From the IMG/VR virus record IMGVR_UViG_2526164669_000027: a stretch of 48,145 nucleotides of DNA. One strand, 5' to 3'. The stretch's first letter is position 1. Every line of letters starts with the position of its first letter. The notes under the pieces were generated by a model. The model was not told where the DNA came from and made no database searches. It saw only the letters and a program-made list of their open reading frames with translations. Source of the DNA: a virus. Taxonomy: Duplodnaviria > Heunggongvirae > Uroviricota > Caudoviricetes. Below, piece by piece: positions 40,859 through 41,729 of this stretch. A program made the translations under genes and the position numbers.

Positions 40859-40969
40859 TCTTTAGCCTCACACCGGATACTCTGTTATCCAAGAATGTTA
40901 AACACAAGAATCCAAAGTATCAAGAAATTCTGTTACTTTAGTATCAGCAGCCATGAAAGGAGAAGAAAA
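40859..40969. promoter_or_regulatory. immunity-region divergent promoter/operator (OR-like) between the cro-like gene and cI
   Basis: Repeated GTATCA/GATACT half-sites (40876-40881, 40916-40922, 40940-40946); 12-mer CCAAAGTATCAA at 40912-40923 recurs downstream of cI. Confidence 0.55.
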
Positions 40970-41626
40970 ATGAAATCTTTAGGTGAACGCCTCATCAACG
41001 CACGACAAAAAGCTGGGTTAACGCAAGATGCGTTGGCTAAAAAAGCAGGGGTCACCAGAGTTGCAATCAGTAAAGCCGAGCAAGGCCTTACAAAAAGTTT
41101 CAACGGTGACACCCTTTTTAAAGTCGCAGCTGCACTGCAGTGTTCACCGCAGTGGCTTCAGAACGGAGATGAAAAAGATAAGCATTGGGAAAATAATGTT
41201 AAGAGCTGCCCACAGAGAGACACAGCACACTCTTACCCTGTAATTAACTGGGTTCAGGCAGGATTATTCGCAACCGCTGGTGATGACTACAACATGTATG
41301 ATCAGGATAACTGGAGGCATTCTGTAAAATACGCTGGTGAGAGGGGGTTCTGGCTGGAAGTGCACGGAGACTCAATGACTTCGCCCGTAGGAATAACATT
41401 TCCTGAAGGAATGTCGATCCTTGTCAACCCAGATAAAGAAGTTTTTTCAGGGTGTTACGTCATCGCCAGAAAAAAATCTACCAATGAAGCAACATTCAAA
41501 AAATATATTTCTGAAATGGGAAAGGCGTTTCTAAAGCCCCTTAATCCACAATATCCAATCATAGAAATGGACAATGATTGCGAAATAGTAGGTGTTGTGG
41601 TTGATGCCAGGTGGGATATTTTCTGA
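40970..41626 (+). CDS. cI: CI-type prophage repressor (N-terminal HTH, C-terminal S24 LexA-like autopeptidase)
   Basis: ..LTQDALAKKAGVTRVAISKAEQG.. HTH; ..LEVHGDSMTSP.. Ser nucleophile and ..ATFKKY.. Lys; AAAGGAGAAG RBS. Confidence 0.9.
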   Translation: MKSLGERLINARQKAGLTQDALAKKAGVTRVAISKAEQGLTKSFNGDTLFKVAAALQCSPQWLQNGDEKDKHWENNVKSCPQRDTAHSYPVINWVQAGLFATAGDDYNMYDQDNWRHSVKYAGERGFWLEVHGDSMTSPVGITFPEGMSILVNPDKEVFSGCYVIARKKSTNEATFKKYISEMGKAFLKPLNPQYPIIEMDNDCEIVGVVVDARWDIF

Positions 41627-41729
41627 CCAGACACAAAACACAAAAAGAAACCAAAGTATCAAAAATCACTTGCCACACATTGATACCTTAGTTACCATAA
41701 AACAAAGTTCGTAACTGAGGTATCATCTC
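41627..41729. promoter_or_regulatory. OL/pL-like operator-promoter region controlling the leftward operon
   Basis: CCAAAGTATCAA (41651-41662), inverted TTGATACCTTAG (41681-41692), GAGGTATCATC (41718-41728). Confidence 0.5.

Follow-up and report, generated by a model that had tools for sequence, protein, structure and literature searches.

The probable immunity region and its repeated words

The 48,145-nucleotide IMG/VR virus record IMGVR_UViG_2526164669_000027, referred to here in its full length as the window, was found to carry a cI-type repressor gene that is flanked on both sides by short repeated words related to GTATCA. The 1.5 kb around cI shares 95.7% DNA identity with the L12-L11-L10 segment of the Stx2e phage phiP27, and positions 40859-41729, which include cI and both adjoining intergenic regions, very probably act as immunity switch in a temperate prophage of the phiP27 type. 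The intergenic regions are A/T-rich (36% G+C). Three candidate operators lie between cI and a divergent gene predicted to encode a Cro-fold protein, and three lie just downstream of cI; a sigma-70 scan located one promoter-like element reading outwards toward cro and another reading in the direction of cI. The genes and features of the locus are as follows.

40649-40858, minus strand: cro-position gene (homologue of phiP27 L12), 69 amino acids (aa), with which the rightward (PR-like) operon opens
40874-40891: candidate right operator (OR) site OR-a, core GATACTCTGTTATC at 40876-40889, within the cro leader, covering about +1 to +13 relative to the PR-like promoter
40895-40923, minus strand: PR-like promoter toward cro, -35 TTGATA (40923-40918), 17-nt spacer, -10 TAACAT (40900-40895)
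40906-40923: candidate operator OR-b, core GAATCCAAAGTATC at 40908-40921, overlapping the PR -35 and holding the first copy of a 12-mer (40912-40923)
40930-40947: candidate operator OR-c, core GTTACTTTAGTATC at 40932-40945, nearest to cI and the best match to the symmetric consensus (11/12)
40931-40939, plus strand: candidate PRM-like cI maintenance promoter, extended -10-like element TGTTACTTT inside OR-c
40970-41626, plus strand: cI repressor gene (phiP27 L11), 218 aa
41645-41662: candidate left operator (OL) site OL-a, core GAAACCAAAGTATC at 41647-41660, upstream of the PL-like -35 and holding the second copy of the 12-mer (41651-41662)
41670-41698, plus strand: PL-like promoter toward L10, -35 TTGCCA (41670-41675), 17 nt, -10 TACCAT (41693-41698)
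41680-41697: candidate operator OL-b, core GATACCTTAGTTAC at 41682-41695, across the PL-like spacer and -10
41709-41726: candidate operator OL-c, core GTAACTGAGGTATC at 41711-41724, covering about +7 to +20 of the PL-like transcript with the Shine-Dalgarno GAGG of the next gene
41730-42146, plus strand: L10, first gene of the operon after cI and target of the PL-like promoter, 138 aa with a C-terminal HTH_3, DicA-like domain

The exact 12-mer CCAAAGTATCAA, which the original prediction had placed on both sides of cI, is present at the two positions listed, and no third exact copy occurs in the window. Of 2000 dinucleotide shuffles, 4 produced a word of at least 12 nt common to both intergenic regions. 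GTATCA itself occurs at 40917-40922, 40941-40946, 41656-41661 and 41720-41725, and its reverse complement TGATAC at 41681-41686. The coordinates predicted for the copies of this hexamer were all recovered, except that the one at 40876-40881 is not exact: it reads GATACT within GGATAC, the reverse complement of which (GTATCC) matches GTATCA at five of six positions. The whole-window motif search that had been proposed as a check gave five copies of GTATCA/TGATAC in the 214 bp flanking cI, compared with 0.14 expected from the remaining window (Poisson P = 4e-7).

Inverted-repeat analysis, together with alignment to a relative sharing 85% identity, defined the repeated unit as an imperfect palindrome of 14 bp, GATAC-N4-GTATC, which extends to 18 bp, nTGATAC-N4-GTATCAn, when the flanking T and A are included. 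GTATCA, which had been proposed as the half-site, corresponds to positions 12-17 of an operator of the P22 type; each region thus holds three imperfect palindromes and not loose half-sites. Every site combines one consensus-like half with one weaker half. The refined pattern GATACNNNNGTATC, with up to two mismatches allowed, was matched 21 times in the 48 kb, and six matches (starting at 40876, 40908, 40932, 41647, 41682 and 41711) fall inside the 214 bp against 0.07 expected (P = 1e-10), a value that has to be read with the pattern's origin in mind, since it was derived from the same six sites on which it is then counted. For this reason, an unbiased search over all 5-N4-5 palindromes was run, and GATAC-N4-GTATC ranked best with a score of 9 versus a shuffle maximum of 5. 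The centres of OR-b and OR-c are 24 bp apart, the OR spacing as a whole being 32/24 bp, and OL-c is an inverted copy of OL-b, the two forming 15-nt arms with 93% complementarity.

Over the full length of the window GTATCA is about twice as frequent as in dinucleotide shuffles (36 vs 17.3), with 31 copies outside the operator regions, and an enrichment of about the same size was seen for CTGT-N8-ACAG with at most one mismatch (31 vs 15.8); both excesses are probably codon-usage effects. Scanning with an 18-bp position weight matrix gave a single operator-like score outside the immunity region, 17.8 bits for AAGAATACATGGTATCAA at 30644-30661. It lies inside an open reading frame (ORF) at 29542-30729 (plus strand, DUF4236), a plus-strand gene among minus-strand genes, which also contains a weaker match at 30201-30218. 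This sequence was considered as an extra operator and is taken as a chance match, because the matrix rests on only six sites; it is, moreover, located in a coding region.

The PR-like -35/-10 arrangement is found 31-37 nt from the cro ATG in 9/9 loci compared, across genera and despite sequence divergence. The PL-like arrangement was recovered by the scan in loci L002 and L104 and in those of Photorhabdus and Salmonella, with TTGCCA, TTGCCC, TTGACA or TTGCGA separated by 17 nt from TACCAT or TACATT; a Klebsiella counterpart, TTGCAC-17-TACCTT, was seen in the sequence by eye, below the threshold of the scan. The cI maintenance promoter may lie within OR-c, where an extended -10-like TGnTACTTT is present, and in 9/9 loci compared a TGnTAnnnT element precedes the cI ATG by 23-35 nt. 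This element speaks only weakly for PRM because it partly coincides with the operator consensus. TAGTAT was considered as an alternative -10 of PRM and set aside, its A2 position not being kept in three variants.

The repressor has an HTH_3 domain (1e-14) followed by a Peptidase_S24 domain (1e-22). Its C-terminal part matches lambda cI (3bdn, E 2e-33), and the alignment placed the VQA/G cleavage site (A97-G98), the serine of GDSM (S135) and the lysine of TFKK (K178) opposite A111-G112, S149 and K192 of lambda. The N-terminal domain resembles most closely that of P22 c2 (1adr, 2r1j and 3jxb, E 4e-10 to 7e-10, residues 4-68) and 434 Cro (E 1e-9), and is also related to the 434 repressor (E 3e-5). 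The recognition helix reads TRVAISKAEQ in CI and SNVAISQWER in P22, with the Asn matching P22 N46 retained. Copies of cI that are 100% identical are also present in IMG/VR.

Conservation of the sites and covariation with the repressor helix

A scan of IMG/VR disclosed 66 close copies of cI, which together with the window and locus L002 yielded 25 different sequences for OR and 29 for OL. In both intergenic regions conservation is highest in the half-site columns: only 2 of the 30 columns in the strong half-sites are variable, compared with 10/30 in the weak half-sites, 10/24 in the spacers and 92/130 outside the sites (strong half-sites versus outside columns, Fisher P = 6e-11). At OR-b the block CCAAAGTATCAAG is unchanged in 24 of the 25 OR variants. 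OL-b is near-invariant in the 29 OL variants: a single substitution was seen in two of them, located in the GATAC half-site in one case and in the spacer in the other. The pentamer CTTGC and the heptamer TTACCAT are likewise near-invariant in this OL set.

The six sites of the window are common to phiP27, and all six are present in the immunity region of phage Stx2_12E129_yecE, which shares 85% DNA identity and a 94% identical cI with the window and in which the OR-a position is occupied by the perfect palindrome GATACTTAAGTATC. In locus L104 (cI 87% identical) the DNA between the sites has been largely rewritten, yet none of the six sites is lost, their order and positions correspond to those of the window, and OL-a carries perfect half-sites (GATACTTTAGTATC). 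The offset of OR-a is retained in L104 and in the Klebsiella, Photorhabdus and Salmonella loci.

Homologues of L12 that are 60-80% identical were found in Klebsiella, Yersinia, Photorhabdus, Providencia, Salmonella and others, and in 4/4 loci examined (Klebsiella, Photorhabdus, Providencia and Salmonella) the gene is divergent from a repressor with S24 and helix-turn-helix (HTH) domains. Set side by side, the recognition helix of the repressor and the core of the adjacent sites are as follows.

Window: helix TRVAISKAE, core GATAC-N4-GTATC
Klebsiella, Photorhabdus and Salmonella: helix TRVAISKAE, GTATC sites with the 32/24-bp OR spacing and OL layout of the window
Providencia: helix SRVTISKIE, core GAAAC-N4-GTTTC
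Serratia: helix SRMAISKIE, core TAAAC-N4-GTTTA
P22-like repressors (46% identical to the window cI): helix SNAAISQWER, core TTAAG-N4-CTTAA flanking the gene at either end, recovered with the 5-N4-5 search used for the window

In Klebsiella, Photorhabdus and Salmonella the N-terminal domain of cI is just 63-79% identical to that of the window, and the helix is unchanged. In the heteroimmune relatives the half-site shifts together with the recognition helix on a constant geometry, and for this reason CI is the likely reader of the sites; this is the strongest argument available, and it agrees with the earlier proposal that the repeated words set the immunity specificity of the prophage. As a negative control, GATAC-N4-GTATC was absent near cI in species-representative genomes with a cI at most 51% identical. 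In a further group of relatives (L004-L014 and L117) the 5-N4-5 search gave nothing above shuffles, and their operators probably have another geometry.

Proposed mechanism and alternative explanations

With good confidence, the repeated words are regarded as six predicted CI binding sites that would shut off two early lytic promoters. The placement of OR-like and OL-like operators around cI, put forward in the original prediction, held up: a CI-type repressor gene is found between the two sets, its divergent neighbour is predicted to have a Cro fold, the sites overlap conserved promoter-like elements and the half-sites are the most conserved columns. CI dimers would bind the six 18-bp imperfectly symmetric operators nTGATAC-N4-GTATCAn, with GTATCA contacted as positions 12-17 and the A/T-rich central 4 bp left free of contacts, as in P22. 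The C-terminal domain would act, lambda cI-like, in RecA-stimulated autocleavage and oligomerisation. On the right, OR-b would cover the -35 of the cro promoter and OR-a its start site, and OR-c would lie over the probable cI maintenance promoter and so provide an autoregulation that limits CI synthesis. On the left, OL-a, OL-b and OL-c bracket the TTGCCA-17-TACCAT promoter presumed to drive the operon from L10 to xis and int. In the lysogen, CI occupancy would silence both lytic promoters and confer a superinfection immunity specific for the GTATC half-site, until SOS-induced, RecA-stimulated cleavage at Ala97-Gly98 relieves repression, after which the Cro-fold L12 presumably acts at the same region. 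The analysis shows the sequences, their non-random clustering and conservation, their covariation with the recognition helix, the protein homologies and the promoter-like elements; that CI binds, where transcripts start, in what order and how cooperatively the sites fill, and what L12 does are inferred from these comparisons.

Several observations weigh against the assignment, besides the origin of the refined pattern mentioned above. The weak half-sites are poor, with two mismatches in five positions in OR-b and OL-c, and are variable among relatives. The site of best symmetry is OR-c beside cI, which is the reverse of the lambda order of affinities if the match count predicts affinity. Activation of PRM in lambda uses the -42 position; OR-b is centred at about -32 of the candidate PRM, and positive autoregulation can therefore not be assumed. 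L12 is more conserved than cI across loci with differing half-sites (78% vs 49% in Providencia). Finally, the stretch that separates the cI stop codon from OL-a (41627-41646) contains no predicted intrinsic terminator in the phiP27-type loci, unlike that of the relatives in Klebsiella, Photorhabdus, Salmonella, Providencia and Serratia (L119, L121, L124, L125 and L003), where a clear GC hairpin with a T-run follows cI. Since no predicted terminator precedes the PL-like promoter, read-through from the cI promoter is possible, and the earlier suggestion that the downstream operon is repressed in the lysogen is plausible with this caveat.

In two respects the wiring of the phiP27-type switch might depart from that of lambda and P22, although this is improbable. 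The RNA of OL-b and OL-c would fold into a 15-bp hairpin masking the L10 ribosome-binding site in read-through transcripts, whereas transcripts from the leftward promoter would contain only one arm of the hairpin, leaving the ribosome-binding site free. The order of sites would be reversed, with the strongest predicted operator over the repressor's own promoter, and L12 would be a generalist lytic regulator of the Cro kind, recognising no more than the shared inner core (AC-N4-GT) and exchangeable between immunity types. A generalist L12 is proposed because this protein is nearly unchanged while CI and the outer bases of the half-sites diverge.

Returning to CI as the principal reader of the six sites, the question arises whether another regulator of the locus, the Cro-fold L12 or the HTH protein L10, could be the main one. 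Both genes adjoin the sites, L12 has a Cro fold, L10 has an HTH_3, DicA-like domain, and in lambda-type switches Cro shares its operators with CI. Such sharing by Cro is, though, already included in the model with CI and offers no alternative to it. The half-site changes with the cI helix, and the L12 motif SQGVGKWK is unchanged in Providencia, where the half-site is GTTTC. As for L10, a 36-aa ORF in Photorhabdus begins like it, but the Klebsiella, Photorhabdus and Salmonella loci keep GTATC sites and have called genes downstream of cI that lack an HTH Pfam match. That L12 or L10 should be the main reader appears quite unlikely.

A function of the inverted repeats as RNA was also evaluated, whereby the hairpin of the OL-b and OL-c arms (41681-41695 and 41711-41725) would attenuate read-through or mask the ribosome-binding site of L10. 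The arms are predicted to fold (centroid energy -20 kcal/mol, z = -2.05), and the hairpin contains the Shine-Dalgarno of L10, GAGG at 41717-41720; a transcript starting at about 41705, without the 5' arm, has no structure beyond chance, and in contrast to the relatives no terminator is predicted between cI and the hairpin. Nevertheless, an RNA role would leave four of the six sites unexplained, and the hairpin lacks a U-tract. At OR and OL-a the 14-bp units stand alone and directly oriented, and conservation tracks the half-site pattern and not stem pairing. It is very unlikely that the repeats act in this way in place of operators, and the hairpin suggests at best an extra translational layer, in read-through RNA, over operator function. 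It is scarcely credible, last, that the words arise from chance similarity, recombination relics at module boundaries or host-factor sites such as those of LexA. The A/T-rich composition of both regions, the excess of GTATCA throughout the window and a mosaic boundary at the 3' end of cro would fit such an origin; chance is opposed by the shuffle and Poisson tests and by the strong conservation footprint, and the sites are retained at constant offsets in several genera and change along with the cI helix. A LexA-controlled SOS-box promoter was rejected, no CTGT-N8-ACAG box with at most one mismatch being present in 40859-40969 or 41627-41729, and no Rfam family matched in either intergenic region.

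Prophage context and relation to known switches

The window is recognised, from its gene content and homologies, as a phiP27-type temperate prophage inserted beside a yecE-like gene: structural and replication genes are on the minus strand, and the integrase gene (45797-47110) adjoins a DUF72 (yecE-like) gene. The 1.5 kb around cI is also 85% identical to that of a group of yecE-integrating Stx1a and Stx2a phages. Of 5,426 complete E. coli genomes, about 200 carry the immunity region. Homology to phiP27 ends at the 3' end of the cro-like gene (40640-40660), a mosaic boundary at the edge of the immunity module, and the early-right genes beyond it differ from phiP27 L13-L17. This operon of the window, unlike that of phiP27, contains an IS3-family insertion sequence, presumably IS911-like, about 1.5 kb downstream of cro (ORFs 37973-39186, OrfA with HTH_Tnp_1 and OrfB with rve). 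Its ALIL frameshift pseudoknot (38789-38905, 120 bits) was the only Rfam family detected within 38000-44000. The element stands directly after an 89-aa Ant/Rha-like ORF (39238-39507) that is apparently truncated, on account of which the prophage may be defective in lytic growth, with its immunity kept. A tRNA-Gly gene (anticodon TCC) is located at 27517-27589 on the minus strand, in a 590-bp ORF gap (27220-27806).

The cro-position product, 69 aa here and 75 aa in phiP27, belongs to an unnamed family that is widespread in Enterobacterales (homologues P0001-P0042; PHROG 4749, no Pfam), is predicted to have an all-alpha Cro-like fold and contains the near-invariant motif NAAIGxxFPxKGKxRSSQxVGKWxxRGVPEDVAILCH. 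On the other side, L10 (PHROG 4739/4836) is related in its C-terminal half to the DicA-like/'CII-like' HTH proteins, and only this HTH portion is found again in many other prophages of E. coli. An N-type antiterminator gene is the first of the PL operon in lambda, 434, P22 and 933W; here L10 is found in its place, which leaves the operator logic unaffected.

Among known switches, that of P22 immC is the closest in several respects. The repressor of P22 binds six rotationally symmetric 18-bp sites, the central 4 bp of which are not contacted (PMC4267663). The phiP27-type region shares with it a homologous N-terminal domain of the repressor (E 4e-10), a sequence pattern fitting an 18-bp symmetric site with a 5-N4-5 core and A/T-rich central 4 bp, three sites per side, a repressor gene directly between OR and OL with no rex-like genes, and an all-alpha Cro as the divergent partner. 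It differs in the half-site (TGATAC here, TTTAAG in P22), in the DNA-facing positions of the helix (N32, Q37 and W38 of P22, here R, K and A), in the OR spacing (32/24 bp here, about 23/25 bp in P22-like loci), in the position of one site per side, which lies beyond the predicted start point, and in its first leftward gene, an HTH protein here and the N/gene-24 antiterminator in P22. As the half-site TGATAC and the helix TRVAISKAEQ differ from those of P22, the prophage is predicted to be heteroimmune to P22.

The likeness to lambda resides in the homologous C-terminal domain with its Ala-Gly site and Ser/Lys dyad (E 2e-33), in the divergence of cI and cro around a tripartite OR, in a second tripartite set that would control a promoter reading in the cI direction, and in the pairing of one consensus-like with one weaker half in each site. 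The lambda sites, however, are 17 bp long and of other sequence, its N-terminal domain matches CI less closely than those of P22 or 434, rexAB and a predicted terminator between cI and OL are missing here, the best-matching site is nearest to cI, and the geometry of PRM activation is not conserved. With 434 the region has in common related HTH domains and a 14-bp core of which the outer bases would be contacted and the centre not; the 434 operator is ACAA-N6-TTGT, a 4-N6-4 arrangement as opposed to 5-N4-5 here.

In the GenBank and RefSeq records of phiP27, L11 is annotated as 'putative lambda repressor' or 'helix-turn-helix domain-containing protein', L12 and L10 are labelled as unknown and no operators are annotated. 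No description of these operators was found in searches of full-text literature, which did not cover the original 2002 phiP27 paper, where operators may be mentioned. What has been recognised is a new specificity within the known P22/lambda kind of switch, ordinary in principle, and the general picture of temperate phage control is unchanged. The immunity type is that carried by the Stx2e phage phiP27 and by yecE-integrating Stx1a- and Stx2a-converting phages, with relatives of the same specificity in Klebsiella, Salmonella and Photorhabdus, and the 'unknown' L12 and L10 of the records become annotatable. Knowledge of the operator sequence would make superinfection immunity groups among these prophages predictable from sequence and would provide reporters or decoys for studies of Shiga-toxin phage induction. 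The natural series of helices and half-sites (GTATC, GTTTC, GTTTA and CTTAA) on one P22-like scaffold would be useful for following how repressor specificity evolves.

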